A program made the position numbers and the translations under genes. The notes below the pieces were generated by a model. It saw only the letters and a program-made list of their open reading frames with translations. It was not told the DNA's origin and did not search any database. From Minisyncoccota bacterium (GTDB lineage Bacteria; Patescibacteriota; Minisyncoccia; Phycocordibacterales; UBA5272), in contig JAGOQU010000002.1 in NCBI GenBank assembly GCA_018063165.1, forward strand, positions 3,048 to 67,047: 64,000 nt of DNA. Direction: 5' to 3'. Numbering within the stretch: the stretch's first letter is position 1; each line of letters opens with the position of its first letter. Below, piece after piece: positions 4,305 to 51,079 of the stretch.

Positions 4305-4601
4305 ATGGATTTTACAAAACTTTACAATGATTTACCAAAAGATTTCAATCTTATAAATCTAAACAATGAAGAGAAAGAAGAGATGCTTTTTGAAATTTCA
4401 AAAACTATACAAAAGCAATTCCTGCTTGATGTATATGATCTTCTTGGTAAAGATAAGTTTGATGCGCTTCAAGCATCAGCTCAAATGGGGGATGAATTTT
4501 ATATCACAACACTTAAACATTTACTTCCAAGCTATGAAGAAGTGTTTGTTACTGCACGAATGAAAATAGTAACAGCGTTTAATAAAAATATAGCATCTTA
4601 A
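4305..4601 (+). CDS. Hypothetical small protein (98 aa)
   Basis: ORF immediately downstream of the previous gene, followed by terminator hairpin aaagggcgaaacc-gaa-ggtttcgcccttttt at 4627-4657. Confidence 0.35.
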   Translation: MDFTKLYNDLPKDFNLINLNNEEKEEMLFEISKTIQKQFLLDVYDLLGKDKFDALQASAQMGDEFYITTLKHLLPSYEEVFVTARMKIVTAFNKNIAS

Positions 4602-9937: not shown

Positions 9938-10861
9938 ATGGAAACAGAACACAAAAAAATACACGAGGCGTTTCTTGTCCTTTTTTTTATTATTTTTTTA
10001 GTTGGTATTAGTTTATTCTTACCCGCAAAATGGTTTGGGGTAAAAACAAAATCATACACACCACTAGATTTACAAAAAATATCGAAACCAAAGAATCTAA
10101 ACGAAGACTCAGACAACAACGGTATTCCCGATTGGAGAGATTTAGCACTTTCAACATTAAGCACTTCAACAAAAAATACCTTAGCCTCTCAAAAAGTTGA
10201 CCCTTTGATAAAGCAAAGATTAGAAGATCCTAAGAATATAACTGCTTCTTTTTCAAAAAATATGTATATAAATTCTTCATATGTACAAAAAAATGGCAAT
10301 ATCACTGAAGAAGAAAAGAAAAAAATTATTGCCGAAACTATGAAGCAAGAGATATCCAAAATAGTTATACAAGAATATAAAGTTAACGATCTTATAATAA
10401 CTAGTTCAGATTCCATTGAATCCAAAAAAAAGTATGGTAACGCGCTAGGTTCTCTCATAAAAAAAGCAACAGTTTATGAAATAGGAGGAGGCGATGTAGA
10501 GATTTTAAAAGTATATATAGAAAAAAAAGATACATCTCTATTACAAAACTTTACTGATAAAAAAGAGAATCTTGAAGGTCTTATTAAAACAATGCTAACA
10601 ATTCCTGTACCATATTCTGCAATTCCGTATCATTTGCTTGCTCTTAATAGAATTTCTGAATACAAAACAATACTCGAAGGTTTTGAGACAACTGATTCTG
10701 ATCCAGTTCGTTCGACGATTGCATTTAACATGTATTATCCAAATATCAAAGGACTATTTTTTGCTCTTAATAACATGAGAGACTACTTTAATATAGAAAA
10801 TGTTATCTTTAAAGAAAGTGAAGCTGGTTATGTTTTTACTTCAGGGTATACTATACAATAA
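9938..10861 (+). CDS. Bitopic membrane protein (single N-terminal TM + extracytoplasmic domain), possibly a VirB8/ConB-like T4SS component
   Basis: N-terminal TM 'LVLFFIIFLVGISLFL'; position at the head of the T4SS-like cluster; no sequence motif confirms VirB8. Confidence 0.35.
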   Translation: METEHKKIHEAFLVLFFIIFLVGISLFLPAKWFGVKTKSYTPLDLQKISKPKNLNEDSDNNGIPDWRDLALSTLSTSTKNTLASQKVDPLIKQRLEDPKNITASFSKNMYINSSYVQKNGNITEEEKKKIIAETMKQEISKIVIQEYKVNDLIITSSDSIESKKKYGNALGSLIKKATVYEIGGGDVEILKVYIEKKDTSLLQNFTDKKENLEGLIKTMLTIPVPYSAIPYHLLALNRISEYKTILEGFETTDSDPVRSTIAFNMYYPNIKGLFFALNNMRDYFNIENVIFKESEAGYVFTSGYTIQ

Positions 10862-10871
10862 TTACACTATT

Positions 10872-12563
10872 ATGAAAAAAACTTTTTTTGTTATCTTATC
10901 AATATACATTTCAGTAATTTCTTTGCACAATACAACATATGCAGCTAACCAGGTAGCAGGAGCTCTAGAACCTACTCAAATAATGAACAATGTTGAACTT
11001 GGTATTATTGATTTTGCTACTGTTGACCAACTTATACAAGACACACTCCTTACCCGCAAAACAGTTATTTTAGATGTAATAGAAGCTGGGCTTATATCTT
11101 ATGCACAACAAACAGCTATTGAAGAGATTGTAGCGTGGGCTAATGGTGGTTTCAATGAGAGTGACTCACTTATTGTTTCTAATCCTGAAAAATACATATT
11201 AGGAGAAGGTAGAAAGATAGTCATGAAAAACTTACAAGATATCCCTACTGGCACAGCATTTGGTGATAGTATTTTTAGTGCTATTTTAAATAATTCAAAA
11301 GAAGTGAGCACAGCTAGTCAATTAAAAGAACTTAGTAATTCTCCTTATTTAGCAACACTACAAAAAAATACATGTGATGGTGATACTATTCTAGATATGG
11401 CTCAAAAAGCGGCAGAGTCTGAAGGAGGGTCAGAAGAGGAGATACGTGCAAACTATGACGAGTTTCATGCTAATTATTTTGACTCTTTTTGTAACAATAA
11501 TCCAAACGAAGACCCTAGCACAGCATCTAATCTAGAAGAACTTGCCAAGTATGACTCTTCTGTTTCCGGTTGGGATGGTTGGCTTATTTCAATAAACGAC
11601 AACAAATTCACACGAACACAAGAAGCTTTAAAAATAGTAGAAAACGACAAACAAAAAAAAGAGACATTCGCTACAAAAGAATTATATGATGGCCTAGGTA
11701 CACTTAGTCAAAAAGGGTGTGCAGATGATGTGACCGATATGGCTGAATGTCTTAACCCTATTATTCTTAATCCAGGAAAAGTAGTGCAAGATACTCTTTC
11801 TGCGGCAGCAAATGCACAATTAGAAAGAATTAGTAACTTAACTGGTGCAGATGGTATAGCTGCTCTTATTACAGAATTTATAACAAGCTCCCTAAAAGAA
11901 GGTCTCAATAAAACAATACAAAACAACTTACACTCATCAAATGATGAAGAGACAATAGGTTCTACAGCTCCTCCTACACAAGATTTTTTGAATAACACAG
12001 AAAAGAAAGAACAGATCACTGCACCTATATTAAAACAACTAAATTTTATACTAACAGTACTTACTGATTTAGAAAAAATAGATAATGATTTTTTATCTAG
12101 TATGATTAGTTATGAAAATCGTATACAAGACGGAAGAACTTGCTTCAACACACTTGTTATTGATTATCCATTATTAGCCAATACTACTGATGTTGTTAAT
12201 GCATACGCTTTTTATACAGAAAGACAAGGGAGGGTGGACACTGTCCGAACAGAGGCAACTAATGAAAAAATAAAAATAGGAGAAGCGAGAAGTCTTGTAA
12301 CAGAAACCCAACTAAAAATAGCGTCAACAAACTCATCCCAAGAATTAACCAATATATATAAAGAATACTCTAATGCCTATGAAGATGGAGGATATCCAAC
12401 AAATCAAATCTTAGCAAGAAGAAAAGGTGACTATCAGCAAGCTCAATCAAATGTAAGATTAGATACAGCAACATCACCTTCAGAAGGGGACATGATATTA
12501 CACGAAAAAAAGTGTAAATCATTACGATCTTCTCAGGAGCAAGGTAATGGGGGTAGTAGATAA
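10872..12563 (+). CDS. Secreted protein with signal peptide, unknown function (T4SS-cluster associated)
   Basis: Start chosen at 'MKKTFFVILSIYISVISLHNTTYAANQ' (signal peptide); the six-frame ORF extends upstream to 10800. Confidence 0.45.
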   Translation: MKKTFFVILSIYISVISLHNTTYAANQVAGALEPTQIMNNVELGIIDFATVDQLIQDTLLTRKTVILDVIEAGLISYAQQTAIEEIVAWANGGFNESDSLIVSNPEKYILGEGRKIVMKNLQDIPTGTAFGDSIFSAILNNSKEVSTASQLKELSNSPYLATLQKNTCDGDTILDMAQKAAESEGGSEEEIRANYDEFHANYFDSFCNNNPNEDPSTASNLEELAKYDSSVSGWDGWLISINDNKFTRTQEALKIVENDKQKKETFATKELYDGLGTLSQKGCADDVTDMAECLNPIILNPGKVVQDTLSAAANAQLERISNLTGADGIAALITEFITSSLKEGLNKTIQNNLHSSNDEETIGSTAPPTQDFLNNTEKKEQITAPILKQLNFILTVLTDLEKIDNDFLSSMISYENRIQDGRTCFNTLVIDYPLLANTTDVVNAYAFYTERQGRVDTVRTEATNEKIKIGEARSLVTETQLKIASTNSSQELTNIYKEYSNAYEDGGYPTNQILARRKGDYQQAQSNVRLDTATSPSEGDMILHEKKCKSLRSSQEQGNGGSR

Positions 12564-12629
12564 ATAACAACTTTTATAATTTCTTATATTCCCACTTCAT
12601 TCTTGTCTTAGTCGTGATACACTAAGAAC

Positions 12630-15188
12630 ATGAAACATACGTGGTTTTTTGGTACCCAAGTATCTATAGTAAAGTCTATCGCTTCACTAATATTCTTTTG
12701 TAGTATTATTGTTGGTTTTTTGTCTCCTGTTAAAACATCAGCTCAAACATATACAGATGGTCAACTTATATATTTAAAAGCTTATGTTGAATGTGCTAAT
12801 AGACTTGGTCCAAAATTAGCTGATCCAGCTCACGCAAATGATGATGATGTTAAACGATGTAAAATGAATCAACAGAGTGCAGGTGGGAATACCACAGCAA
12901 CAACAGACGAACTAAGAGCTGTTATTAACCAAGCTTTAACTAACGGAGATGCTGCACGCGATGAGGCAAGAAAAGTACAACAAAACGCAAGTAAATGTTC
13001 TAATATAATAACAACTTTTACAGAATGTATTGATGCTGGTTTTGCTTGGATTGTCAAACATACCTTACTTGCAATAGCAGGATGGTTACTATGGCTCACA
13101 GGAACCATGATGAACTATGCTATTGATATAGGTATACTTCAATTTTCTAAATGGGCACCTGACGCACTCTATCCTATATGGATAATTATACGTCAAATAG
13201 TTTCTCTATTTGTTGTCTTTGCAGGACTTTTTCTTGGTTTCATGTATATCATTAATAAAGGAGATGAATTCAAAAAATATATTCCTTGGGTTGTTATTTT
13301 TGCTCTTTTTGTCAATTTTTCATACCCTATTACACGTGCACTTATAGATGTATCTAATGTTATATCTTTAAATATTTATACTAGTGCTGTAGGGTCAAAC
13401 GCTCTTACTGGAAGCACTTCAATAACAGGAGAACAAACTCCTGGCGCTATCATAAGAAATAAACTAGGTCTTCAAGGTCTAGTTGATTATGCTATTAACG
13501 GTGCAAAAGAAGGCGAAGGTGTTTTAAATAAAATAGACAACACACCTTCAGCGCTTCTTGCTGTTATTTTTATTGCGTATGCTGCATGGATATTTTTTAA
13601 AGTTACCATGCTTCTTGTATCAAGAACAGCTGTACTAGTCTTCCTTATTATTGCTTCTCCTGTACTACTTGTTGATACTGTTATACCGAAACTAGGCCCA
13701 ACAGCAGCAAAACTACGTGAAATGTTCTTTCAGCAACTTTTCCTTGGACCTATTTTTACTATTATGCTTGCTATAACACTCAAATTTCTTGATGTATTTA
13801 AATCATCAGGGGCTCTTGGTGGTAGTGCGACTTTGGATACTATGTCATCTGGAACAGGATCGTCTACTATTGTAATGTTCTTCAATCTCCTAATGATGCT
13901 TGTCATGCTCAAAATAATGATAAATGTAACAGAATCAACGTCAGGAAGTGTAGGGAAGGCAATTTCTGGCGCTGTAGGCACAGTTGGGGGCTTTGCTCTT
14001 GGTGCTGCAACAGGAGGAGCTGGTCTTATAGGTCGCGCAACCATAGGAAGAGCTGCTGCAAAACTAGGGGGTAGCAAGTGGATGCAAAATAGACAAGGTG
14101 GTTTCGTAGGAAGACAGCTTGCAAATATGACAGACTCTGTTGCAAAGAGTAGTTTTGATGGACGTAATTCAAGTATAGTCCAAAGTGGAGCAAAAAGAAT
14201 GGGGCTTAGTTTAGGAATGGGAAGCAAGATGAACTATGAAATGATGCAAGAAAACAGAGCAAAAAATCTAAAAGCACATCTTGAACGAACAGGGACATAC
14301 CAACGAGACACCAAAGATGAGAACGGAATACTACGAAGAAAAGGAGATGTAGACAATAGTACAGAGTCTATAGAAGCACGTAAAAGAATTATAGAAAATT
14401 CTGGTGGTTCAAAATTCTTGTCATCAGAAGCAAATAAAGAGGCTTTAAAAAGAGACTTAGAGAAAGCTAATGTACAGTTAAGCAGGTCACAAGATGAAAA
14501 AATTGTTACGGACATAAATAATATGTCTACAGAAAACAGAGATGCTTTTGAAAAAAATATTTCTAAATATACATCTGATCCAACAATTACATCAGAGATG
14601 AAAGCTAAAATACAAAAAGCCAGAATAAATAAAATTGTTACTGATTATAAAAAACTAGAAAGAGAAGTTGATAAAGATGCATTCAGAAGAATGTATGGAT
14701 CAGAACCTTCTGATGCTGATGTTAAAGATAAGCTAGATGGTGCAGATGTTTCAAAAGCTGAAGAAACCTACAACAGTTTTGATTTGAATACAGAAAAAGG
14801 GAAAGCTGATAAAAGAGCATTTGTTGAAAAATCTACTCAGGGAGGGGTGGATGCTAATATACGCGTAAAAATAATTAACCTTGAATCTGAAAATGCTCTC
14901 AAAAAATATAAAGAAGCTGGCGGAGACAAAACATCAGCTGGAGAAAAAATATTCACTGAAGCTACTTCTGATGTCAGAGCAAAAATTACTGAATACAATA
15001 ATAATATACTAGAACAAAAAGCTAATCAACGTAACGAGAAAAAAGTTATCAACAAAGATTTGGCTGAGGCGATTGTTACTGAATTACAAAAAAATAAACA
15101 AGACCAAACACAACAAGGAGACCAAGAAGAAGAAAAAACATCTAGCAGCGCTAAAGAAAAAGAATTTAGCTGGGACTCTTTTGTATAA
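12630..15188 (+). CDS. VirB6/TrbL/ConG-like large polytopic T4SS channel protein (852 aa)
   Basis: Signal peptide, then 6 or more hydrophobic helices, a Gly-rich segment (GAVGTVGGFALGAATGGAGLIGRATIGRAAAKLGG), and a charged coiled-coil-like C-terminus. The size and architecture are those of ICEBs1 ConG / VirB6, inferred from architecture only. Confidence 0.5.
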   Translation: MKHTWFFGTQVSIVKSIASLIFFCSIIVGFLSPVKTSAQTYTDGQLIYLKAYVECANRLGPKLADPAHANDDDVKRCKMNQQSAGGNTTATTDELRAVINQALTNGDAARDEARKVQQNASKCSNIITTFTECIDAGFAWIVKHTLLAIAGWLLWLTGTMMNYAIDIGILQFSKWAPDALYPIWIIIRQIVSLFVVFAGLFLGFMYIINKGDEFKKYIPWVVIFALFVNFSYPITRALIDVSNVISLNIYTSAVGSNALTGSTSITGEQTPGAIIRNKLGLQGLVDYAINGAKEGEGVLNKIDNTPSALLAVIFIAYAAWIFFKVTMLLVSRTAVLVFLIIASPVLLVDTVIPKLGPTAAKLREMFFQQLFLGPIFTIMLAITLKFLDVFKSSGALGGSATLDTMSSGTGSSTIVMFFNLLMMLVMLKIMINVTESTSGSVGKAISGAVGTVGGFALGAATGGAGLIGRATIGRAAAKLGGSKWMQNRQGGFVGRQLANMTDSVAKSSFDGRNSSIVQSGAKRMGLSLGMGSKMNYEMMQENRAKNLKAHLERTGTYQRDTKDENGILRRKGDVDNSTESIEARKRIIENSGGSKFLSSEANKEALKRDLEKANVQLSRSQDEKIVTDINNMSTENRDAFEKNISKYTSDPTITSEMKAKIQKARINKIVTDYKKLEREVDKDAFRRMYGSEPSDADVKDKLDGADVSKAEETYNSFDLNTEKGKADKRAFVEKSTQGGVDANIRVKIINLESENALKKYKEAGGDKTSAGEKIFTEATSDVRAKITEYNNNILEQKANQRNEKKVINKDLAEAIVTELQKNKQDQTQQGDQEEEKTSSSAKEKEFSWDSFV

Positions 15189-15200
15189 TAGAAGACATAT

Positions 15201-15944
15201 ATGAACCCAACATATCTCGCACAAAACAGAAAAGAACTCTTCGAATCTTCACCTGAAGGTATAAAAAAACTTATTAAAGGTGGGGAATTACAAAAAACAG
15301 CTACATTTCTTGGAGAAAAACATAAACTTCCTATTGGTATGTATGGAAGACTTTCAAATATTATTTCTTTTGTTCTTGTAGGTGCATTACCAACAGAGTA
15401 TGTAGTAACCGCTCTTACAGATGCTATTTCTCTTACAGAAGAAGAGGCGACAGCACTAGCACAAGACCTAGAAACAGGAATATTTGAAAAGGCGAGAATG
15501 ATTACACTAGGAAAAGAAGTTAAAGAAACAACAACACTTGAATTCAAAGGACCACGTTCTCCTGATGAACTAAGAAAAGAAATAATGGATACCACTAAAC
15601 GTGAATCAGCTCTTGTTATACCTCAAACATCCGGTATTCCAAAGAAACCAACAGCAGTAACACCAGGGTCACGATCTCAACTTCTTGAACAATTGCAAAT
15701 TTTAAGTTCTATTCCAAACGATGAAGAGGTAACAGATAGACTAAAAAAAATACAAGAACAAATCAATTCAATAAAAAAAGTTGAGGAAGATAATTCTCTA
15801 CAATCAAATATAGCGCTTAAAAGTTTTATGTTTGGGGACAAAGGAAAAGAAACTGTTCCGGCTATAAAAAAAACAGCTACATATAGTGTTGCTCCTACGA
15901 GATACAACCTTGATCCTTACAGAGAAGTTCCAGAAGAAGAATAG
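15201..15944 (+). CDS. Hypothetical protein (247 aa) within the T4SS-like cluster
   Basis: ORF between the ConG-like and PrgI-like genes; one hydrophobic segment. Confidence 0.4.
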   Translation: MNPTYLAQNRKELFESSPEGIKKLIKGGELQKTATFLGEKHKLPIGMYGRLSNIISFVLVGALPTEYVVTALTDAISLTEEEATALAQDLETGIFEKARMITLGKEVKETTTLEFKGPRSPDELRKEIMDTTKRESALVIPQTSGIPKKPTAVTPGSRSQLLEQLQILSSIPNDEEVTDRLKKIQEQINSIKKVEEDNSLQSNIALKSFMFGDKGKETVPAIKKTATYSVAPTRYNLDPYREVPEEE

Positions 15945-16004
15945 TGTTTTTAAGTTACATTTTCTCTCTATACGTACAAAGAAAGTATCTGCTATACTAT
16001 CTAT

Positions 16005-16439
16005 ATGCAATTTCGAGTACCACAATTTATTGACATGGAAGATAAAATTATTGGACCTCTTACACTTAAACAGTTTGGTTATGTTGTAGGAGCAGGTGGT
16101 GTATCTTTTATTATATGGACTTTTATTCCTATTAAAATACTTGCCATTCTTCTTATTATTCCTATAGCAGGACTTTTTCTTGCTCTTGCTTTCGTTAAAC
16201 ACAACAATAGATCTTTTGGAGAATTTCTTGAAAACGCTTTTGCTTACTACACAAATCCAAAAGTATATACATGGAAACAACCAACACCAGAAGTAAATAC
16301 AAATGAAGCAAATATAGACAAAATAGTTTCTGACACGACAAAACAAATGATTATTTCAAAAACAGACAGAGACAGAATACATGATCTTTCTCTTGGCCTT
16401 GATGTACTTGATAACAATATTCCAAAAGAAGAAAAATAA
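16005..16439 (+). CDS. PrgI/ConD/VirB3-like small membrane protein
   Basis: 144 aa with two adjacent TM helices ('GYVVGAGGVSFIIWTFIPIKILAILLIIPIAGLFLALAFV'), immediately upstream of the VirB4-like ATPase as in Gram-positive conjugation loci. Confidence 0.5.
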   Translation: MQFRVPQFIDMEDKIIGPLTLKQFGYVVGAGGVSFIIWTFIPIKILAILLIIPIAGLFLALAFVKHNNRSFGEFLENAFAYYTNPKVYTWKQPTPEVNTNEANIDKIVSDTTKQMIISKTDRDRIHDLSLGLDVLDNNIPKEEK

Positions 16440-16520
16440 ATACACGCACTTCTAATCTATAACTATCAATAAACACTTTTCACCATTGGAGATACACATT
16501 TCTGTTGTATACTGAGCTAT

Positions 16521-17156
16521 ATGGCAAAAGGTATAGCAACTCAAGAATTCGTACCAATAGAAAGAGTAAGGGATGGTATTATCACTTTAAAAACAGGTGA
16601 GCTTCGTGCCGTTCTCATCACCAATTCTCTTAATCTTGCTCTTAAAAGTGAAGACGAGCAACAAGCTATACTTCTTCAGTTTCAAACATTTCTTAACTCA
16701 CTTGATTTTAATATAGAATTTTTTGTTGAATCAAGAAGACTTAATATCAAACCTTATATTGATATCCTTCAAGCAAGAAGTAAAGAAATAAAAGAAGATC
16801 TTCTAAAAATACAAATACATGAGTACATTGGTTTTATTACCAAATTCACAGAAGAAAGTAACATCATGACAAAACATTTCTTTATTACTATTCCGTATTT
16901 TCAATCAGAACAAACGTCTTCAAATGCTTCATTGTTACCTTTTGGTTCATCTTCGTCTAGTAAAAAAAATGAAGAAACAAATTTTGAAGCATCACGTATA
17001 CAATTAGAGCAAAGAATTTCTACTGTTGTTATGGGGCTTGCACGTTTCGGTCTTCGTGCTCAAAAATTAGGAACAGAAGAAGTTGTTGAACTTTTTTATA
17101 AATTATTTAATCCGAGTGAGCAAAATAGAAAAGCTCCACCAATAACACAACAATAA
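16521..17156 (+). CDS. VirB4/ConE-like ATPase, N-terminal fragment (211 aa), separated from the rest by a stop plus frame change
   Basis: 'VPIERVRDGIITLKTGELRAVLITNSLNLALKSEDEQQAILLQFQTFLNSLDFNIEF' matches the conserved N-terminal segment of Gram-positive VirB4 proteins (Tn916 Orf16/ConE type). Confidence 0.55.
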   Translation: MAKGIATQEFVPIERVRDGIITLKTGELRAVLITNSLNLALKSEDEQQAILLQFQTFLNSLDFNIEFFVESRRLNIKPYIDILQARSKEIKEDLLKIQIHEYIGFITKFTEESNIMTKHFFITIPYFQSEQTSSNASLLPFGSSSSSKKNEETNFEASRIQLEQRISTVVMGLARFGLRAQKLGTEEVVELFYKLFNPSEQNRKAPPITQQ

Positions 17157-17160
17157 CATT

Positions 17161-18984
17161 ATGGGAATTTTTGATTTTTTAAACGCCAACAAAAAAACAG
17201 ATAAACCTGTTGTTTCTCCTGTATTACCAGAACAGGTATATAAAATTGCAGAAATGCAACTAAAAGATGTTATAGCTCCAAGTGCTCTTGGTATCACTTC
17301 AAACGGTCTTAATCTTGGTACAGTTGTTGTTCGTTCTTATTTTGTTATATCATATCCACGTTATCTTACAGACAATTGGCTTTCTCCTATTATTAACCTT
17401 GATAAAGTTTTTAATGTTTCAATACACGTATCTCCACTTAACACCAGTGACGTCATGAAAACGTTTCAAAGAAAAGTTGCAGAAGTTGAAAGTCAGATTA
17501 TTACACGAGAAGAAGAGGGGAAAGTAAGAGACCCTGCTCTTGATGTAGCTTTTGAAGATCTTGAAGATCTTCGTGATGGTCTTATTCAGGCTCAAGAAAA
17601 AATGTTTGAAGTGTCTCTTTATATTTCTTTGTATGGAGAAAATGAAGAGGAGTTAGATAAAGTGGAAAATGAAATGAAAAACATACTTGAAAGTCGTCTT
17701 GTATATATCAAACCAGCTACATATCAACAAGATGTAGGTTTTCTTTCTACACTTCCATTAGGACAAGACAAGCTTGCAATAAAAAATAAAATAAACACAT
17801 CTCCTCTTTCTTCATTTTTCCCTTTTGTTTCTTCTGACCTTTCTTCAGATAAAGGTATTTTATATGGTCTTAATAGACATAACGGTAGTCTTATTCTATT
17901 TGATCGTTTTTCTTTAGAGAATTACAACTCTATCGTGTTTGCAAAATCTGGCTCTGGAAAAAGTTATTTAACAAAATTAGAAATACTACGAACACTCATG
18001 TTCGATACGGAGGTGATCATTATAGATCCAGAACGAGAATATGAATTCCTTGCAGAATCTGTAGGTGGTAGATATTTTGATATTTCTCTTACAAGTGATC
18101 ATCATATTAATCCTTTTGATCTTCCTAATCCAACTGCTGACGAATCTCCTTCTGAAGTTCTTCGTTCAAATATAGTTAATTTAGTTGGACTTTTTCGTGT
18201 TATGCTTGGAGGCCTTAGTCCAGAAGAAGATGCTATCGTTGACCAAGCTATCACCGAAACATATGCACTTAAAGATATAAATGGTGATTCTGATTTTACA
18301 AAACTAGAACCACCACTTCTTTCTGATTTTGAAATGGTATTAGGTGGTATAGATGGATCAGAAGATTTAATACAAAGACTTTCAAAATATACAAGGGGGA
18401 CATGGTCTGGTTTTATCAACAAACCTTCTAATGTTGATATCAATAAAAAACTCGTATGTTTTTCTATACGTGACATGGAAGATGAATTAAAAGCAGTGGC
18501 AATGTATATCATTACTCACTACATTTGGAATTCTGTACGTAAAAATATTAAAAAAAGACTTCTTGTTGTTGATGAAGCATGGATAATGATGAAAAACGAC
18601 GACACTGCATCGTTCTTATTTGGTCTTGCAAAACGTGGAAGAAAATACTATTTAGGTCTTGCTACTATTACGCAAGATGTTGGTGACTTCCTAAAATCAC
18701 CATATGGTCTACCTATTATTACGAACTCATCCATACAAATGCTTTTGAAGCAATCTCCTTCGTCTATCGATGTTATACAAAAAACATTCAACTTAACAGA
18801 TGAAGAGAAGTTTTTACTTCTTGAATCTGGTGTAGGTGAGGGGATATTCTTTGCAGGACTTAAACACGTAGCCATAAAAGTGGTTGCTTCATACACAGAA
18901 GATCAAATCATCACAAGTGACCCGTCTCAGCTTCTCAAAATAAAACAAATGAAGGATGAATTAGCAGAATCAAAAGGTTTATGA
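17161..18984 (+). CDS. VirB4/ConE/TraC-family T4SS ATPase, ATPase portion (607 aa)
   Basis: Walker A 'FAKSGSGKSYL', Walker B 'LLVVDEAWIMM', 'LATITQDV' motif; stop TGA overlaps the next gene's ATG. Confidence 0.8.
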   Translation: MGIFDFLNANKKTDKPVVSPVLPEQVYKIAEMQLKDVIAPSALGITSNGLNLGTVVVRSYFVISYPRYLTDNWLSPIINLDKVFNVSIHVSPLNTSDVMKTFQRKVAEVESQIITREEEGKVRDPALDVAFEDLEDLRDGLIQAQEKMFEVSLYISLYGENEEELDKVENEMKNILESRLVYIKPATYQQDVGFLSTLPLGQDKLAIKNKINTSPLSSFFPFVSSDLSSDKGILYGLNRHNGSLILFDRFSLENYNSIVFAKSGSGKSYLTKLEILRTLMFDTEVIIIDPEREYEFLAESVGGRYFDISLTSDHHINPFDLPNPTADESPSEVLRSNIVNLVGLFRVMLGGLSPEEDAIVDQAITETYALKDINGDSDFTKLEPPLLSDFEMVLGGIDGSEDLIQRLSKYTRGTWSGFINKPSNVDINKKLVCFSIRDMEDELKAVAMYIITHYIWNSVRKNIKKRLLVVDEAWIMMKNDDTASFLFGLAKRGRKYYLGLATITQDVGDFLKSPYGLPIITNSSIQMLLKQSPSSIDVIQKTFNLTDEEKFLLLESGVGEGIFFAGLKHVAIKVVASYTEDQIITSDPSQLLKIKQMKDELAESKGL

Positions 18985-19961
18985 AAATTTTTACACAAAA
19001 AATATATATTCTTTTTTCTCTACTATATGCTATATTCACAATTCATACTGCATATGCAGAACCTCAGGTAAGTTTAAGTCTTATCCCTAAAAACCCCGTA
19101 CCGTATTCTCCTCTTCTTTTACGTGTTTCAAGTTATTCTTTTGACGTAAATACTGCGATGATAACATGGAAATCGAATAATCAAATACTTGAATCAGGGT
19201 TGGGAAAAACTGAATTCACCTTACAAACAGGTGGAGTAGGGGAAGAATCTATTATCAATGTTGTTGTAGAAACAAAAACAGGAATTAGGGTAGAAAAAAG
19301 AATAAAAATTATCCCTGAATCTGTATCTCTTATATACGAAACACCAGAAAGTTATACCCCTCTTTTTTATGAAGGTCTTTCTTTACCAGGAGAACAAGCT
19401 ACTATTCGATTTACAGCATTGCCGTATATGAGTGATGGGGGATCAATCATATCACCAGAAAAAATATCTTTTTCGTGGTATGTAAATGATACTTTAGTTA
19501 AAAAAAATTCTGGTATAAGTAAACAATCTGCAATGATTCCTCTTGATATGTTAACTGAATATACTTCTGTAAAAGTAGTAGCTCGTTCAGAAAATGGTTC
19601 AGTTGCAGAAAAAACAATAAAAATATACCCACACAAAATAACACCACTTTTTTATACCCATGACGAAATACTAGGTACCGCTTATAATCAAGCATATACA
19701 AAACGACTCCAAACAACTAAAGATTTTACTATTTCTTTTGAACCATATTATCTTTCTAGTAAAAACAATACTTCTTATGATGTGGTAACTGTTTGGACAA
19801 TGGATGGTCTTCCTATTACACCACTTGGAGGAAGATTATTATCAATGAAACCAAAAGAAAATAGTTACGGATCAAAAACCCTCTCTGTTACTGTTTCAAA
19901 TACAAAAAAACGTCTACAAAAAGTAACATCGAGTATCGCTCTTATTTTTGATACTCGCTGA
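18981..19961 (+). CDS. Secreted protein with signal peptide, unknown function
   Basis: 'MKIFTQKIYILFSLLYAIFTIHTAYAEPQ' signal peptide; translationally coupled to the VirB4 gene. Confidence 0.45.
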   Translation: MKIFTQKIYILFSLLYAIFTIHTAYAEPQVSLSLIPKNPVPYSPLLLRVSSYSFDVNTAMITWKSNNQILESGLGKTEFTLQTGGVGEESIINVVVETKTGIRVEKRIKIIPESVSLIYETPESYTPLFYEGLSLPGEQATIRFTALPYMSDGGSIISPEKISFSWYVNDTLVKKNSGISKQSAMIPLDMLTEYTSVKVVARSENGSVAEKTIKIYPHKITPLFYTHDEILGTAYNQAYTKRLQTTKDFTISFEPYYLSSKNNTSYDVVTVWTMDGLPITPLGGRLLSMKPKENSYGSKTLSVTVSNTKKRLQKVTSSIALIFDTR

Positions 19962-19992
19962 GTATCTATTATTTGATATACTCTTTAGTATA

Positions 19993-20841
19993 ATGGCTCA
20001 ACCAATATCATACACAGCATTAGAAAGTGATTTTATACGATCAGTTGGAGCTGAAGCACCAACATTCTCAGATGGAACATCTCCAAGTTTTTTTACATCA
20101 TCATCTTTTTTATACGCACTCTTTTTTGTTGTTATTGTTGTAGCTGCATCATATAGATATGCACTTGCTGGTATGCTTCGTATACAAGCTACAGAAGAGG
20201 GGATACGAAAATCAAAAGAAGAGTTTACAAGAGTTACTTATGGATTACTTGGTGTATTTGGTTTATGGCTTATTTTAGCTACTGTTAATAAAGACATGCT
20301 TACTGGTGATGTTGGTCTTGGTGCTTTAAAGAGTACTATAACAAGTGCTGGTGGAGGGTATATTCCGGGGCAGACGCCGGTGACACCACCTGTTACACCA
20401 CCAAATGATCCAGAAACACCTACCGATTCAGAAAACATAAATAGAGTAAGATTAGTTACTGTTGGTATAACTGTTAATAAACCAGCTTGTGTTGGAGCAA
20501 ATACAAGTTGTACAAACCTGGCCAGAATAGATGAATCTATTCTGGTAATGCTTGAAAAATTAGCAAAAGAATGTTCTTCTTGTAAAGGAGAATTAATGGT
20601 AACAGGAGGTACAGAACCTGGACACAGCGCAACATCTAATCATACAAAAGGTAAAGCTGTTGATCTTAGTTTTAAAGAATCTCTTCTAACTTTTCTTAAA
20701 AAGAATGGAGAAAATGTTGGTAATAACACTCGATGTAATACAAAATATAAATGGGGTGGATATGTATTTTGGGATGAAGAACAAGGGTGTGATAGTGTTG
20801 GTGGTGTAAGACATTTTCATATATCTCTTACAGGAAGATAA
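19993..20841 (+). CDS. Membrane-anchored peptidoglycan hydrolase: two-TM module + Pro/Thr linker + M15 (VanY-like) peptidase domain
   Basis: Start taken at 'MAQPISY' (six-frame ORF begins at 19948); TM helices 'FLYALFFVVIVVAASY' and 'TYGLLGVFGLWLILATV'; M15 motifs 'SNHTKGKAVDLS' (SxHxxGxAxD) and C-terminal 'VRHFHIS'. Confidence 0.55.
   Translation: MAQPISYTALESDFIRSVGAEAPTFSDGTSPSFFTSSSFLYALFFVVIVVAASYRYALAGMLRIQATEEGIRKSKEEFTRVTYGLLGVFGLWLILATVNKDMLTGDVGLGALKSTITSAGGGYIPGQTPVTPPVTPPNDPETPTDSENINRVRLVTVGITVNKPACVGANTSCTNLARIDESILVMLEKLAKECSSCKGELMVTGGTEPGHSATSNHTKGKAVDLSFKESLLTFLKKNGENVGNNTRCNTKYKWGGYVFWDEEQGCDSVGGVRHFHISLTGR
20088..20388 (+). repeat. Copy 1 of a ~300-bp near-identical (~98%) direct repeat encoding the shared membrane module
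   Basis: Aligned by eye to 22279..22578; only a few substitutions (e.g. tatacgcac/tatatgcac, gttattgtt/gttatcgtt). Confidence 0.85.
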
Positions 20842-20904
20842 TTTATAGAAATAATAATCTTAATACAATATATTCTATAAAATATCTCTGCTATACTATA
20901 CTAT

Positions 20905-22191
20905 ATGAATCGTCGATTACTTTTTGCTGTAGCTTTTACACTTTTATTCGCTGTTTGTGTTATTATTTGGTTTTTTGTGTATGCAACACCTCGAACTGAA
21001 ACAACATTAGGAAAACCAGTAGATCCTTTTGCTATAAAAGAATTACCTAAAAAATTTCAATTTCTAAAATCAGAAGGTGAGATCCCTGTATCAACATCAA
21101 CAACAGAAATGACATTTGCAAAACCAGAAATACTTACACAAATCTGGAATAGACCAACAACAGGACAAACATTCATAGAAAAATCAATAGTACAAGAAAT
21201 ACAAGCAACAACAACAAAAGGAACAACAACTATTTCTATTAAAAAATTAATACAAGCTACATCAACAACACTTATGTTTGTTGATAGAATAACTGGCTAT
21301 ATATATGGATACAATAGAGAAAGCACAAAAATATACCAAATAAGTAACAGTACTATTCCTGGTATATACGATGCGTATATTTTTAATAATGGAAAACAAA
21401 TACTTTTTAGATACGAAGATACCGATACTAATACCATTGTAACAGAACTTGCCACTATACCTTCTGTTGGTGAAAAAGAAGAACCAAAATCTCTTGAAAA
21501 TAGAAAATTCCTACCAGAAGGGGTAACATCTATTGCGCTTAATTCAAAAAAAACACTTGCTTCATATCTAGTTACAAGTAACGAAGGATCTTCTATATAC
21601 ACAATAAGACCATCTACTACAGATTTTATAGCAAGTAGTCCTCATACATCTTGGAAATTATCATATAGTGGAGATGCACTCTTTGCAACAACCAAACCAT
21701 CAGCATATGTAGAAGGATATACAGTGAAAATTCCATCATTTGAATTTATTATAGGAAACAAAACAGGTTTAGAAAGTAACCCTTCAGAAAAAGGGACTTT
21801 TATATCTAGTATGTGGTCAAACACAGGATTAAAAACTTTTCTTTCATTAAATGGAAATCAAAAAGTTCTTGATATAAAAACATTATCTTCTAAATGTGCT
21901 TGGGGACAAAAAGAATTCCTTGTGTGTGCTGTTCCAAAAACACTTACAAAAAGTGTTGAAGGATTACCTGACGATTGGTTCCAAGGAAGATTTTTCTTTG
22001 ATGACTCTTTTGTAACAGTAGATACAATCACTGGTGAGATTTTACCCTTATATACTTTTGATACAACAGAAAAAGGTATCTTTGATGTAATTAATATCTC
22101 TTTATCAAAAGACAATTCTATGGTTACTTTTTTGAGAAAACAAGACTACACATTATGGTTGCTTGATACTAATCTTTTTAATGCAGAATAA
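20905..22191 (+). CDS. N-terminally anchored membrane protein (428 aa), unknown function
   Basis: N-terminal TM 'LLFAVAFTLLFAVCVIIWFFVYA', Thr-rich extracytoplasmic region. Confidence 0.45.
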   Translation: MNRRLLFAVAFTLLFAVCVIIWFFVYATPRTETTLGKPVDPFAIKELPKKFQFLKSEGEIPVSTSTTEMTFAKPEILTQIWNRPTTGQTFIEKSIVQEIQATTTKGTTTISIKKLIQATSTTLMFVDRITGYIYGYNRESTKIYQISNSTIPGIYDAYIFNNGKQILFRYEDTDTNTIVTELATIPSVGEKEEPKSLENRKFLPEGVTSIALNSKKTLASYLVTSNEGSSIYTIRPSTTDFIASSPHTSWKLSYSGDALFATTKPSAYVEGYTVKIPSFEFIIGNKTGLESNPSEKGTFISSMWSNTGLKTFLSLNGNQKVLDIKTLSSKCAWGQKEFLVCAVPKTLTKSVEGLPDDWFQGRFFFDDSFVTVDTITGEILPLYTFDTTEKGIFDVINISLSKDNSMVTFLRKQDYTLWLLDTNLFNAE

Positions 22192-22195
22192 AAAT

Positions 22196-23203
22196 ATGGA
22201 CTATCAAGCTCTTGAACCAACAATTTCTTCAAGTATAGGAGTAGAACCTGTTTCGTTTAATAATAATTCAAATGTTTCATTTTTTACATCATCATCTTTT
22301 TTATATGCACTCTTTTTTGTTGTTATCGTTGTAGCTGCATCATATAGATATGCACTTGCTGGTATGCTTCGTATACAAGCTACAGAAGAGGGGATACGAA
22401 AATCAAAAGAAGAATTTACAAGAGTTACTTATGGATTACTTGGTGTATTTGGTTTATGGCTTATTTTAGCTACTGTTAATAAAGACATGCTTACTGGTGA
22501 TGTTGGTCTTGGTGCGTTAAAGAGTACTATAACAAGTGCTGGTGGTGGGTATATTCCGGGGCAGACGCCGGTGACACCTCCTACAACAAACCCAACAACA
22601 CCACAAAACACTGAAAAATGTTTATCAGAAAATGAAACAAAATCAGCTCTTTCTTCTTCTGTAGGTATTTGTGGAAATACACGATGTACTACATTTGTTG
22701 GTTGCAATTATAAACAATATGATTCTATTATTATAGAAGAGGCAAAACGTGCAAATATAAACCCAAATCTTATTAGAGTTATTATGTGTAAAGAATCAAG
22801 AGGAAAAAAGGATGTTCAAAATAGTAAAAATAACAACGGTACTTATGATTGTGGTTTAATGCAAATAAATCAAAATAAACCTTGTGATGAAGCTTCATAC
22901 AATGTTACCAACAACATAAGAGCTGGCGCTACTTTAATAAAATCAAAATTATCAGCAGTGAGTGGGGGTGTTACATATCCAGGTATACCAGTTGAAGCTA
23001 AAATGTTTGCTTCATATGCATGTTGTGGTGGTGGAATAAATCCAAATTCAGAAAGTAACGATTGTACAACATCCAGTGGATACCCTTTCACTCCACCAAA
23101 ATGGGCTTGTCCAAAAAATCCTGGACCAACTAATGCTAATATGTGTTTTGTTCGACAAGATGTATGTGGAGCACTTGCTTGCCTTAAAGAATTAGACAGC
23201 TAA
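22196..23203 (+). CDS. Membrane-anchored lytic transglycosylase: same two-TM module as 19993..20841 + Pro/Thr linker + SLT domain
   Basis: Start taken at 'MDYQALEP'; N-terminal ~100 aa nearly identical to 19993..20841; SLT motifs 'IMCKESRG...', 'YDCGLMQIN'. Confidence 0.6.
   Translation: MDYQALEPTISSSIGVEPVSFNNNSNVSFFTSSSFLYALFFVVIVVAASYRYALAGMLRIQATEEGIRKSKEEFTRVTYGLLGVFGLWLILATVNKDMLTGDVGLGALKSTITSAGGGYIPGQTPVTPPTTNPTTPQNTEKCLSENETKSALSSSVGICGNTRCTTFVGCNYKQYDSIIIEEAKRANINPNLIRVIMCKESRGKKDVQNSKNNNGTYDCGLMQINQNKPCDEASYNVTNNIRAGATLIKSKLSAVSGGVTYPGIPVEAKMFASYACCGGGINPNSESNDCTTSSGYPFTPPKWACPKNPGPTNANMCFVRQDVCGALACLKELDS
22279..22578 (+). repeat. Copy 2 of the ~300-bp direct repeat
   Basis: See copy 1. 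It also creates identical spurious reverse-strand ORFs (20238..20438, 22429..22707). Confidence 0.85.
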
Positions 23204-23941
23204 TTATGCGTGTTTAATTTTATCTGGATGAAGATGAGCTGTTACATGTTTCATATATACATCTTGTAAATATCCAATTACATTACTTACCAACCAATAA
23301 AGACCAAGAGCAGAAGGAAGAGCAAATGCAGAAGCACCAATTATAACAGGAAGAATATACAATAATTGTATTTTCATAGATTTCATAAACTGATCTTGAA
23401 ATGTTTGTTCATCTGATCCTTTCTTTGTACCCATATCAACAGTTTGACGACGAGCAAGTGCATATGATGAAAATCCTGTTAGAACAGCTATTACTATATT
23501 ACCTTTTTCCGTTACATCAAATAACCCAAATGCAAGTGTGTGTAATGTTTCAGGAAAACTAACAAAAGAATATAGAGAAAGAGGGTCAGCTTGTAACCCT
23601 TTTGAAAAAACAAAGTATAAAGCAAAGAAAATAGGAATCTGAAGAATAACAGTAAACAAACTAGCAAAAGGATTAACTTTTTCTCGTTTATACATTTCTA
23701 TCATCATTTTTGAAGCTTCTTGTGGTTTTGTTTTTTGAAGTTCTTTAATTTTATTCATTTCTGGTTCAAGACGCTTCATTGCATACTGAGTTCTGAGCGC
23801 AGAAAGATTAAGAGGTAAAAGAAAAAATTTAACAATAAGCGTTACTATAACAATAGCTGTTCCTATATCATGAAGAGGGACAACAGTAAGAACAACAACA
23901 AGGAGGTTATAAATTGGTTCGTAAAATAATGTATGAAACAT
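23204..23941 (-). CDS. yidC: Membrane protein insertase YidC (short Gram-positive/CPR form)
   Basis: Conserved position next to rnpA; polytopic, with 'FFLLPLNLSALRTQYAMKRLEPEMNKIKE...'. Confidence 0.8.
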   Translation of the reverse strand: MFHTLFYEPIYNLLVVVLTVVPLHDIGTAIVIVTLIVKFFLLPLNLSALRTQYAMKRLEPEMNKIKELQKTKPQEASKMMIEMYKREKVNPFASLFTVILQIPIFFALYFVFSKGLQADPLSLYSFVSFPETLHTLAFGLFDVTEKGNIVIAVLTGFSSYALARRQTVDMGTKKGSDEQTFQDQFMKSMKIQLLYILPVIIGASAFALPSALGLYWLVSNVIGYLQDVYMKHVTAHLHPDKIKHA

Positions 23942-23958
23942 AAAAAATATAATTATAG

Positions 23959-24279
23959 TTATAGTGTAGCAAATGCTAGTTTAATTTCATTAGATATTTG
24001 TGTGTAAGAAGTAGAAAGTATTGTAATTTTTGGATATATAACAACTATATAGTTTTTTTCTGGTATATACATCTTTAAAGCATGATACACTTTTCTCTTA
24101 ATCCTATTTCTTTCCACCGCTTTTTTAATACGTTTTTTTGCAATAACACATGAAAAACGAGATAGAGTAGTGTTTGGTGTATATAAAGCAGCAACATCAA
24201 CAAAAGAACCACGAAATATAATCCGTGGTTTAATTCCTTTAAAATCATCTTTTGTAAGTCTTTTTGGTTTTGGAAGCAT
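23959..24279 (-). CDS. rnpA: Ribonuclease P protein component
   Basis: Basic ~106 aa; 'RNRIKRKVYHALK'; position between rpmH and yidC. Confidence 0.8.
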   Translation of the reverse strand: MLPKPKRLTKDDFKGIKPRIIFRGSFVDVAALYTPNTTLSRFSCVIAKKRIKKAVERNRIKRKVYHALKMYIPEKNYIVVIYPKITILSTSYTQISNEIKLAFATL

Positions 24280-24330: not shown

Positions 24331-24465
24331 CTATATAGAAAGCTTTTTACGGCCCATACTTCTACGACGTGAAATAACTCTACGTCCATCTTTTGTTGAC
24401 ATACGAACGAGAAAACCATGAGTTGTTGATCTTTTCTTTCTTTTTGGGTTATATGTTATTGACAT
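24331..24465 (-). CDS. rpmH: 50S ribosomal protein L34
   Basis: '[44 protein letters not shown]' (44 aa); the six-frame ORF extends upstream to 24531, but the internal Met gives canonical L34. Confidence 0.85.
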
Positions 24466-24660: not shown

Positions 24661-25998
24661 ATGGACTATCAACAACTTTGGAACAGTGCTTTATCCCAAA
24701 TTGAGATAGAACTCTCAAGAGTTAACTTTAATACTTGGTTCAAGAATACACGTATTATAGATTATAAAGACGGGGAAGTTACTATCGGTGTTCCTAACGA
24801 ATTTGTTAAAGACTGGCTCAATCAAAAATATCATAAATTTATACTTCGTATATTACGAACAATACACGAAAGCGTTCGTTCTGTTGTGTTTACAGTAGTA
24901 AAACCAGAAACATTACAAAAGAAAGCTCAAAACATAACAATAACAGGTCAAACCCTTCCTCTTCAAGATTTATATGTCAATAAAGATGATGGTCTTAATC
25001 CACGTTACACTTTTGAAACATTTATTGTTGGTTCTTTTAACGAAGTAGCATACGCTTGCTCTCAAGCTGTTATCAATAACCTTGGTATTGTCTATAATCC
25101 TCTTTTTGTATATGGAAATACAGGTCTTGGAAAGACACATATGATGCAAGCAATAGGGAATACTGTAAAGAAAAAATATCCAGACAGAAAAGTATTTTAC
25201 ACGTCACTTGAAAAGTTTTACATGGACTATGTAAATGCTACAAATCTTAACAAGATTAATAGTTTTAAAGAAAAATACAGAAAGTATGATGTCTTTATTA
25301 TGGACGATATTCAATTTATTAATGGAAAAGAAAGAACACAAGATGAACTCTTCCATCTCTTTAATTCTCTTTATGAAATGAATAAGCAGATTATCTTCTC
25401 CTCAGATAAACATCCAAACCTCATTGTTGGCCTAGAAGACCGTCTACGTTCACGATTTAACCAAGGAATGATAGTTGATGTAAACATCCCTCAAGTAGAG
25501 TCAAGGCTCGCAATTTTACAATCAAAAGCAAAAGAGTACAGAGAGAAAATCCCTCAAGAAGTTCTTCAATATATAGCAGAAACAATACAAGGAAATATTC
25601 GAGAACTAGAAGGGGTAATGACGTCAGTACTTGGATATATACAAATTAAACAACAAGCAATAACTCTTCTTGATGTTAAAAACCTTCTTAAAAATAGTGT
25701 ACGAGCAAAAAAGAGTATATCTATTCCTGAAATAGTAAAAATGATTGCTGATTATTATCATATTCCTGATGTGTATATTTATAACAAAACAAGACGAAAA
25801 GATGTTGTAAAACCAAGACAAATTGTCATGTATGTACTTCGTGAAGATTTTGATATTTCGTATCCAATGATAGGTGACAGATTAGGTGGACGTGACCACA
25901 CAACAGTAATACATTCATACGAAAAAATAAAAGGTATGTTAAAAGATAACCCACAACTATCACGTGAAGTTGAAGATATACGAGCAATGCTACTTTAA
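24661..25998 (+). CDS. dnaA: Chromosomal replication initiator DnaA
   Basis: AAA+ 'GNTGLGKTHMMQAIGN', Walker B 'VFIMDDIQF', C-terminal DNA-binding helix-turn-helix 'VMYVLREDFDISYPMIGDRLGGRDHTTVIHSYEKI'. Confidence 0.9.
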   Translation: MDYQQLWNSALSQIEIELSRVNFNTWFKNTRIIDYKDGEVTIGVPNEFVKDWLNQKYHKFILRILRTIHESVRSVVFTVVKPETLQKKAQNITITGQTLPLQDLYVNKDDGLNPRYTFETFIVGSFNEVAYACSQAVINNLGIVYNPLFVYGNTGLGKTHMMQAIGNTVKKKYPDRKVFYTSLEKFYMDYVNATNLNKINSFKEKYRKYDVFIMDDIQFINGKERTQDELFHLFNSLYEMNKQIIFSSDKHPNLIVGLEDRLRSRFNQGMIVDVNIPQVESRLAILQSKAKEYREKIPQEVLQYIAETIQGNIRELEGVMTSVLGYIQIKQQAITLLDVKNLLKNSVRAKKSISIPEIVKMIADYYHIPDVYIYNKTRRKDVVKPRQIVMYVLREDFDISYPMIGDRLGGRDHTTVIHSYEKIKGMLKDNPQLSREVEDIRAMLL

Positions 25999-26041: not shown

Positions 26042-26281
26042 ATAATTAATACACGCTGTGAATAACTCTGTGGATATAGTTATAACAACATAGTGATAAC
26101 ATACCACTATTTCAACACTCATATATCTTCTAGTGAATGTTATACCCAAAATCTGTACGAGAATAATTCATATAATTAAAATAACTTTCTTTAAAAGATG
26201 TTGTTATATAATAGTAAAAAATGTTTCCCACAGTATGCACAGACCTATACTTAATATTATATTTTATATATACTAGTAACT
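26042..26281. promoter_or_regulatory. Candidate oriC / DnaA-box region between dnaA and dnaN
   Basis: AT-rich ~240 bp with DnaA-box-like 9-mers one mismatch from TGTGGATAA: 'tgtgaataa' (~26058) and 'tgtggatat' (~26070). 'tttcccaca' (~26222) is a weaker match. Confidence 0.45.
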
Positions 26282-35793: not shown

Positions 35794-35856
35794 ACTAGTA
35801 GTATATAAGGCATATGACGAAGGTGATAGTGGATAGGGGTTTAAAAACAAATAAAA

Positions 35857-51040: not shown

Positions 51041-51079
51041 TGCGCAAAATATGTCTTTTGTTTACAAAAGACTATTTTG

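Follow-up and report, generated by a model that had tools for sequence, protein, structure and literature searches.

A putative Patescibacteria-type type IV secretion locus beside dnaA in a Minisyncoccota genome

The gene cluster and its secretion core

The stretch of DNA analysed here, a 64-kb window of contig JAGOQU010000002.1 from a Minisyncoccota bacterium, contains a cluster of eleven co-directional open reading frames (ORFs; 9938-23203, + strand), packed with tiny gaps or overlaps and numbered here g01 to g11, that encodes a type IV secretion system (T4SS) of the monoderm type, resembling the mating-pair formation (MPF) class MPF-FATA. A first-pass annotation of the sequence had proposed such a cluster, and the profile matches to PrgI, to the CD1110 family of VirB4 ATPases and to the SLT hydrolase domain bear it out, in agreement with published work (PMC12102498, PMC10633639, PMC12857230). 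All the ORFs listed in that annotation are present on the + strand with matching coordinates, although its gene order passed over three genes (15201-15944, 16521-17156 and 20905-22191). Where something is said below to be absent from the window, this refers to the ORFs within these 64 kb.

The T4SS motor is encoded by g07 (17161-18984, +), a VirB4-family ATPase. It matches the NCBIfam model NF045971 (conju_CD1110), which describes a Gram-positive family, over model positions 183-733 (E=4.7e-113, 379 bits against a cut-off of 325), as well as Pfam P-loop_TraG (E=1.4e-24), and both the Walker A (GSGKS) and the Walker B (DEAW) motif can be read intact in its sequence. Four nucleotides before its ATG lies the stop codon of g06 (16521-17156, +), which encodes a TrsD-like VirB4 N-terminal domain of 211 residues as a separate ORF. 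The NCBIfam matches of g06 all fall under their curated cut-offs and include NF045975 (positions 104-233, E=2.4e-9), NF045971 (positions 2-162, E=8.6e-7) and TrsD itself (NF041427, E=2e-6, 27.7 bits against a cut-off of 200). Because g06 covers positions 2-162 of the CD1110 model and g07 positions 183-733, VirB4 is split over two genes; the earlier assignment of g07 as a VirB4/ConE ATPase thus holds, with the amendment that its N-terminal domain sits on an ORF of its own. g06 corresponds to the 'TrsD' accessory described for Patescibacteria (PMC12102498).

The split is not peculiar to this genome. When one genome per GTDB species was scanned, with confirmation by tblastn, at least 557 matches to this VirB4 were obtained, from which the best 80 loci were kept; in these, VirB4 is 70-90% identical to that of the window, and the taxonomic labels are essentially all candidate phyla radiation (CPR)/Patescibacteria or unclassified. 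Of these loci, 77 likewise encode VirB4 in two ORFs, with the g06 homologue standing separately, and 75 conserve g05 (16005-16439, +), a PrgI/VirB3-like protein with two adjacent transmembrane segments by hydropathy. Its match to PF12666 (E=8.4e-13, 49.1 bits against a cut-off of 27) secures the PrgI/ConD-like assignment made at first pass.

The candidate for the VirB6-like subunit is g03 (12630-15188, +), an 852-residue polytopic membrane protein of the 'extended VirB6' type. Hydropathy predicts an N-terminal hydrophobic segment, six further transmembrane segments and a hydrophilic C-terminal tail of ~330 residues; the conserved core spans residues about 120-530, and the tail is poorly conserved. 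The VirB6 label that had been given to this ORF found no backing in any sequence-profile search. Pfam and NCBIfam were empty for g03, also at E up to 10, and for 28 homologues; the Pfam scan of this family of 29 members gave neither a TrbL/VirB6 match nor recurrent weak ones; precomputed Pfam annotation was empty for 120 homologues; the family profile matched nothing beyond chance among all PDB sequences; and an hhalign comparison with PrgH of pCF10 was not significant. What speaks for the label is topology, position and fold. The place of g03 relative to the PrgI and VirB4 genes mirrors that of prgH relative to prgI and prgJ in pCF10, and when an AlphaFold2 model of the conserved core (mean predicted local distance difference test score, pLDDT, a middling 61) was compared by Foldseek with 350,542 PDB chains, R388 TrwI/VirB6 took ranks 1-4 and 7, the best of these being a weak match (E=0.068, probability 0.99, TM-score 0.46). 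On these grounds we lean towards regarding g03 as a VirB6-type channel subunit.

Five further proteins of the cluster are conserved, and none of them has a Pfam or NCBIfam match, also at E up to 10, or a family profile that matches PDB sequences above chance level. Two are bitopic by hydropathy: g01 (9938-10861, +; 307 residues, one N-terminal transmembrane segment at residues 11-29), whose homologues occupy the same position in 31 related loci, and g10 (20905-22191, +; 428 residues, transmembrane segment at residues 5-23), which lies between the two hydrolase genes and is conserved in 53 loci. By gene order g10 is the positional counterpart of PrgL of pCF10; hhalign comparisons of g10 and g01 with PrgL were not significant. 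Two others have a signal-peptide-like N-terminus and are probably secreted: the Cys-rich g02 (10872-12563, +, the mechanical ORF opening at 10800; about 563 residues), with seven invariant cysteines among 16 homologues, and g08 (18981-19961, +; 326 residues), found directly 3' of virB4 in 74 loci. The fifth, g04 (15201-15944, +; 247 residues), has no convincing transmembrane segment; its homologues in 36 loci are 33-68% identical and keep an invariant motif at the C-terminus. Being bitopic or secreted and conserved in 23-74 loci, g01, g02, g08 and g10 presumably make up the extracytoplasmic part of the channel or a stalk, and one of the two bitopic proteins, g01 or g10, may play the role of VirB8.

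Hydrolases carrying pilin-type hairpins

The cluster ends in two genes for membrane-anchored peptidoglycan hydrolases, as the first-pass annotation had recognized, although the certainty differs between them. The last, g11 (22196-23203, +; mechanical ORF from 22163), joins a two-transmembrane hairpin of pilin type and a linker to a VirB1-like SLT lytic transglycosylase domain (PF01464, E=2.7e-10); its best NCBIfam match is to the conjugal transfer protein TrbN (E=6e-6, under the cut-off), and by its domain match it is certain to count as a hydrolase. In g09 (19993-20841, +; mechanical ORF from 19948), the same type of hairpin (residues about 30-100) and a Gly/Pro/Thr linker precede what is probably a LAS/M15-like zinc peptidase domain. 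No significant Pfam match was obtained for g09, and its family profile gave chance-level matches only against all PDB sequences, so that the assignment draws on motif and fold. The family has the invariant residues H..H-x6-D...E...H-x-H, within an SxHxxGxAxD...HxH context, which we take to be the zinc-site signature of VanY/M15 (LAS) peptidases; weak Pfam M15_3/M15_4 matches (E about 0.15) fall at this motif, and an hhalign comparison with a VanY domain from a related locus aligned the zinc motif alone (E=0.039). The C-terminal domain is modelled confidently by AlphaFold2 (pLDDT about 90), and its top match in BFVD is a Microviridae protein annotated 'Sonic hedgehog' (E=6.8e-4, probability 1.0), which has the LAS fold. 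In related genomes, unambiguous domains of the VanY (E about 1e-11) or the Amidase_2 (E about 1e-17) family occur in the protein that takes this slot. A Foldseek search of the whole g09 model against PDB placed histidine kinases on top, which likewise combine a helical hairpin with an alpha/beta domain; we judged these matches spurious.

An N-terminal segment of about 130 residues is common to both hydrolases (106/133 positions matching by BLASTP, 80%). It comprises a two-transmembrane hairpin with a K/R-rich loop, then the Gly/Pro/Thr linker, and about 100 residues of it, the hairpin stretch, are the same in both proteins. At the DNA level this appears as a 300-nt direct repeat (family D1), the reference copy encoding the g09 hairpin (20089-20388, +) and a second, 98% identical copy encoding that of g11 (22280-22579, +). 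Across 14 related genomes among loci L001-L027, the copies are 86-100% identical within a genome, as against a mean of 66% (57-83%) between genomes. Such high identity within and low identity between genomes bears the clear signature of recurrent gene conversion that homogenizes the hairpin-coding repeats and is restricted to the 5' part of the two genes, which are otherwise unrelated.

Several lines of comparison tie these hairpins to T4SS pilins. The window's own hairpins have no direct match to PF18895 (T4SS_pilin) or any other Pfam family, and the connection runs through their relatives: the g09-family profile matches exactly the PF18895 region of a distant full-length homologue, P0156 (26 bits), and that of same-slot proteins in loci L043-L078, of which four lie above the Pfam T4SS_pilin cut-off and some also match TrbC/VirB2. 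With a joint hairpin profile, annotated CPR pilins are recovered at E=1e-18 to 1e-26. The hydrolase hairpins would accordingly be divergent VirB2/T4SS_pilin modules that dock the hydrolases to the extracellular part of the machine or build them into it. In the window and all 80 related loci, every pilin-type module within 10 kb of virB4 lies inside a protein of 243-882 residues, and the number of stand-alone pilins in this range is zero. Among the 82 proteins in this set, Pfam sees a cell-wall-active domain in up to 37: SLT in 21, VanY in 9, NlpC/P60 and YkuD in 2 each, and Amidase_2, Amidase_5 and Peptidase_M15 in 1 each, a pattern that looks like domain swapping on a constant pilin module. 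In these loci (L001-L080) the ORF with the pilin module lies directly 3' of the g08 homologue (at about 12.8 kb in most of them), and some of the proteins have N-terminal TIG domains. An artefact of ORF calling was considered for the fusions and rejected, as GenBank has g09 as a single 282-residue protein; SLT-type homologues of g11 are also single proteins, of about 325-350 residues, that match the hairpin.

How the hairpin serves the machine can be read in two ways. The conservative one is that a pilin-derived hairpin acts as a membrane anchor docking VirB1-like hydrolases to the machine. A bolder one, which we put forward tentatively and hold to be doubtful, is a 'hydrolase-armed' pilus or stalk, in which the VirB4/VirB6 machine would extract and assemble the hairpins so that interchangeable peptidoglycan-degrading heads face and open the wall of the host. 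This would amount, with the same reservation, to the logic of polymorphic effectors built on a pilin, in a Paceibacteria lineage whose locus has no free pilin gene. The main text of PMC12102498 does not mention pilin-hydrolase fusions, and targeted literature searches found none; the fusion and the concerted evolution of its repeats may be the sole elements here that go beyond the literature.

Chromosomal setting, inheritance and function

Downstream, the cluster abuts yidC (23204-23941, -; PF02096, E=7e-38), rnpA (23959-24279, -; PF00825, E=2e-11) and rpmH (24331-24465, -; the L34 sequence was read in the DNA), followed by dnaA (24661-25998, +; Bac_DnaA, E=1e-62) and dnaN (26282-27373, +), which together with dnaA marks a putative origin region. 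The first-pass placement of the cluster next to yidC-rnpA-rpmH|dnaA is therefore upheld by profile or sequence for the flanking genes. Two DnaA boxes with one mismatch each lie 12 nt apart in the dnaA-dnaN intergenic region (26057-26077, -); as DnaA-box-like 9-mers are not enriched across the window as a whole, the origin adjacency of the cluster rests on the rpmH|dnaA-dnaN arrangement. Upstream are an lnt-like gene, a membrane protein gene, ksgA, pcrA/uvrD, two genes without assignment, an M23/LysM peptidase gene and a YifB/ComM-like ATPase gene. The window is AT-rich, with a G+C content of about 0.32, and the cluster (0.32-0.35) resembles its flanks, composition being uniform with no shift. 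A promoter and terminator scan was uninformative, promoter-like sites being fewer than in shuffled sequence.

The surroundings offer several observations in their own right. The two genes upstream of pcrA, neither of which has a family match, encode a Thr/Asn/Glu-rich low-complexity protein of 588 residues (2529-4295, +) and a protein of 98 residues (4305-4601, +). The YifB/ComM-like AAA ATPase gene (3-1205, +) is cut by the left edge of the window, and a lone PilB/GspE-type T2SSE ATPase (34090-35850, -; E=6e-117) lies beside murE and ruvA/ruvB-like genes with no further pilus genes nearby; these two ATPases relate to type IV pili and competence, in the literature a separate essential system. 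A tRNA-Ser (51079-51166, -) has the anticodon ACT (loop TTACTAA, read from the sequence) instead of the GCT usual for AGY codons; an unmodified A34 is unusual in bacterial tRNAs apart from tRNA-Arg(ACG). In a more distant group of Paceibacteria, whose VirB4 is about 71% identical, there is a jag/KhpB-like KH-R3H gene between the T4SS locus and yidC (15314-15784, -, in locus L050, and comparable loci); the same group lacks the second, SLT hydrolase and has an Amidase_2 fusion in place of the M15-like protein.

The cluster and both of its flanks recur in the same gene order across related loci, in dozens of species-level genomes, and dnaA lies 3.4-7.3 kb downstream of virB4 on the same strand in 42 of the 44 informative loci, that is, those with at least 8 kb of sequence downstream of virB4. 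This is the synteny comparison that the first-pass annotation had called for. Identity in VirB4 correlates with identity in DnaA, DnaN and YidC (Spearman rho 0.88-0.89), and among deeply diverged loci VirB4, at 70-74% identity, is better conserved than DnaA, at 41-58%.

Much of this has precedent. Southlakia epibionticum cannot grow epibiotically without an unusual T4SS (Wang et al. 2023, Cell, PMC10633639); the genes of this T4SS, SEML1_0006-0019, come right after the start of genome numbering, and the system is Gram-positive-like, with pilins but neither a relaxase nor a coupling protein. Quinonero-Coronel et al. (2025, Microb Genom, PMC12102498) found VirB4 in 2,417 of 3,035 genomes, mostly in one monophyletic clade nested in MPF-FATA, with TrsD, PrgI/VirB3, VirB6, VirB1 and VirB2-like genes near virB4; among the T4SS accessories of Patescibacteria, TrsD is the commonest. 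The system as such, the lack of a relaxase and the position close to the origin are thus already published (Wang 2023; Quinonero-Coronel 2025). Against this background we consider it very probable that the region is a chromosomal, vertically inherited T4SS of the Patescibacteria type (Paceibacteria), derived from monoderm conjugation machinery of the MPF-FATA class and repurposed. To judge from the families named above and from the genetics of Saccharibacteria, VirB4/TrsD, anchored through PrgI to a VirB6-like translocon, would power the assembly of an envelope-spanning channel or short pilus; the hydrolases would open peptidoglycan, either that of the cell itself or that of the host; and the resulting structure would serve the interface between episymbiont and host, in protein export or the exchange of macromolecules. 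As no relaxase or coupling protein accompanies the locus in the window, nor any oriT, although no search aimed at the latter was made, the machine would not transfer its own DNA.

In its components and their order the cluster is similar to the conjugation modules of Gram-positive bacteria, the best match of VirB4 is a family of conjugal-transfer ATPases, and genes for the type IV coupling protein (T4CP) often lie far from virB4 (PMC12102498). This invites the reading that the cluster is the mating-pair formation module of an integrative and conjugative element (ICE) like ICEBs1 or Tn916, either still active, its relaxase, T4CP and integrase lying beyond the window, or a remnant in decay. We regard this as highly improbable. 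Because the flanks are syntenic and VirB4 co-diverges with core genes, an ICE or ICE remnant is rejected: housekeeping genes on both sides are conserved together with the cluster, and VirB4 being more conserved than DnaA, YidC and DnaN at deep divergence argues against decay. The window bore out the first-pass statement that relaxase, coupling protein and integrase are missing: it holds no relaxase-like ORF, no integrase among its ORFs and no T4CP, every ORF of at least 400 residues being otherwise assigned or without an NTPase match. There is no tRNA near the cluster to serve as a target (the nearest lies at 38.6 kb, more than 15 kb away, and Rfam finds tRNAs only) and no shift in composition, and relaxases occur in just 103 of the about 3,000 Patescibacteria genomes surveyed (PMC12102498). 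The cluster is thus a core chromosomal locus and an ICE is effectively excluded, including one contiguous with the window, which the first-pass annotation had named as a finding that would count against it.

That annotation had left two functions standing side by side, DNA uptake and interaction with a host, and the second of these is now the better supported. In the first, the machine would resemble the ComB T4SS of Helicobacter or the archaeal Ced system and import host or environmental DNA as a source of nucleotides or for transformation. As in ComB, the window has no relaxase or T4CP; Patescibacteria are described in PMC12102498 as lacking nucleotide synthesis; and a 2026 preprint, which reports tubular, possibly T4SS-pilus structures at a parasite-host interface, suggests that these are linked to the uptake of nucleic acid from the host and proposes that host RNA serves as food. 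At the left window edge there is a ComM/YifB-like ATPase, and VirB4 gives a partial match to CedB in NCBIfam, but this match is weak (E=2e-11, 43 bits, far under the cut-off of 700) and confined to the generic ATPase core, and Pfam and NCBIfam recognize no DNA-binding or DNA-processing component in the cluster. Moreover, according to a 2025 review (PMC12857230, citing Wang 2023), competence in Southlakia depends on type IV pili and ComEC, and deletion of comEC ends transformation and not viability, whereas the T4SS is essential. Since ComEC-dependent uptake is, on that account, not an essential role in this cultivated relative, host interaction is the better-supported function, and DNA uptake seems to us quite unlikely. 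A different role in the encounter with a host, which we rate as unlikely, would be that of a surface structure or wall-breaching apparatus: VirB4 would assemble the pilin-hairpin proteins, the fused hydrolases would attack host peptidoglycan, and no dedicated cytoplasmic substrate would be translocated. It would fit the fact that the only pilin-type modules near virB4 sit in the large proteins described above, many with a cell-wall-active domain, that the hairpins of both paralogues are homogenized within each genome and that the locus has no T4CP to recruit substrates. But T4SSs normally come with membrane-anchored hydrolases as accessories that work on the wall of the producing cell (PrgK, CwlT and VirB1 among them), a hairpin anchor need not polymerize, and stand-alone pilins may be encoded elsewhere in the genome.

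Several points weigh against the reading of the region as a repurposed, vertically inherited Patescibacteria-type T4SS. Its function, meaning both substrate and direction, is extrapolated by analogy from another class, Saccharimonadia. The VirB6 label for g03 appears weak, being without sequence-profile support and leaning on a weak fold match (E, TM-score and pLDDT as given above). No VirB8-like component was found among the bitopic candidates g01 and g10 by Pfam, NCBIfam, PDB profile comparison or hhalign against PrgL, and, at the level of sequence families, five of the eleven cluster proteins are without an assignable one. Membership of VirB4 in the Patescibacteria clade is indicated indirectly and tree-free, by the NCBIfam match and the taxonomic labels of close homologues, and the genome may have a T4CP gene outside the window.

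A large part of bacterial diversity belongs to the Patescibacteria, which live attached to other microbes, and their conserved T4SS is one of few candidate machines for this dependence on a host, being essential in the one species tested genetically. The window adds nothing fundamental to that picture; it provides a clean and complete Paceibacteria example, in which the locus is as conserved as the neighbouring replication genes. GenBank holds proteins identical to g03 (MBP6948456) and g07 (MBP6948460) and names the VirB4 'DUF87 domain-containing protein' and both g03 and g09 'hypothetical protein', so that a T4SS of this kind can be overlooked by those who go by such names. Through their gene conversion and domain swapping, the fusions of pilin and hydrolase offer a concrete, testable handle on how the machine may engage the wall of a host cell.

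Comparison with known systems

R388 TrwI/VirB6 (PDB 7o3v, 8rtd) is the best structural match of the g03 membrane core, at 11-13% identity, a TM-score of at most 0.46 and E=0.068; g03 has about three times its length and carries in addition an extracytoplasmic region at the N-terminus and the ~330-residue tail, and R388 belongs to the diderm class MPF-T. Among monoderm systems, the Con machinery of Bacillus subtilis ICEBs1 comprises the polytopic, VirB6-like ConG, the two-transmembrane, VirB3-like ConD, the VirB4 ConE and the membrane-anchored CwlT, which is a glycosidase and peptidase in one. Compared by description, the two activities of CwlT are split over two genes in our locus, and ICEBs1 is excisable; the window has no counterpart of its integrase, its relaxase NicK, its T4CP ConQ or its tRNA attachment site.

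The prototype of MPF-FATA, the Prg/Pcf system of Enterococcus faecalis pCF10, shares with the locus the order of VirB6-like protein, PrgI, VirB4, hydrolase and bitopic protein (prgH-prgI-prgJ-prgK-prgL), a VirB4 of NCBIfam family CD1110 and a monoderm architecture without an outer-membrane core. It differs in being plasmid-borne and in having the T4CP PcfC, the relaxase PcfG with accessory factors, the adhesin PrgB and surface exclusion, and no pilin; in pCF10 a single polypeptide makes up VirB4 and a single multi-domain protein the hydrolase PrgK, whereas both are split here. At the sequence level, g03 shows no detectable similarity to PrgH, nor do g10 and g01 to PrgL. The split of VirB4 is found instead in the Trs systems of Staphylococcus aureus pGO1/pSK41, an MPF-FATA subclass with TrsD, where a separate TrsD-type homologue of the VirB4 N terminus likewise lies just upstream of the VirB4 ATPase (PMC12102498), although the TrsD match here is far under the NCBIfam cut-off (27.7 against 200 bits). 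Unlike our locus, Trs is a plasmid conjugation system with relaxase and T4CP, and the subclass is said to be without a VirB6 homologue (PMC12102498).

The closest likeness is to the T4SSs of the Patescibacteria clade, with which the locus has in common a VirB4 of MPF-FATA ancestry with a separate TrsD-like ORF upstream, PrgI/VirB3, a VirB6 candidate, peptidoglycan hydrolases immediately downstream, modules of VirB2/T4SS_pilin type, and the lack of a relaxase and of an adjacent T4CP. It also shares their site: in Paceibacteria, dnaA, dnaN, rnpA, ksgA and rpmH adjoin virB4 (PMC12102498), and the same genes stand beside the cluster here. The difference lies in the pilins. Published Patescibacteria systems have stand-alone VirB2-like pilins and arrays of 2-11 pilin genes, mainly in Saccharimonadia and Microgenomatia, whereas in this locus and its 80 relatives the pilin modules are all inside larger proteins, fused to a hydrolase wherever Pfam recognizes the C-terminal part. 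The modules also relate to one another differently, occurring here as two near-identical copies per genome, in contrast to the pilins of the published arrays, which average about 25% identity.

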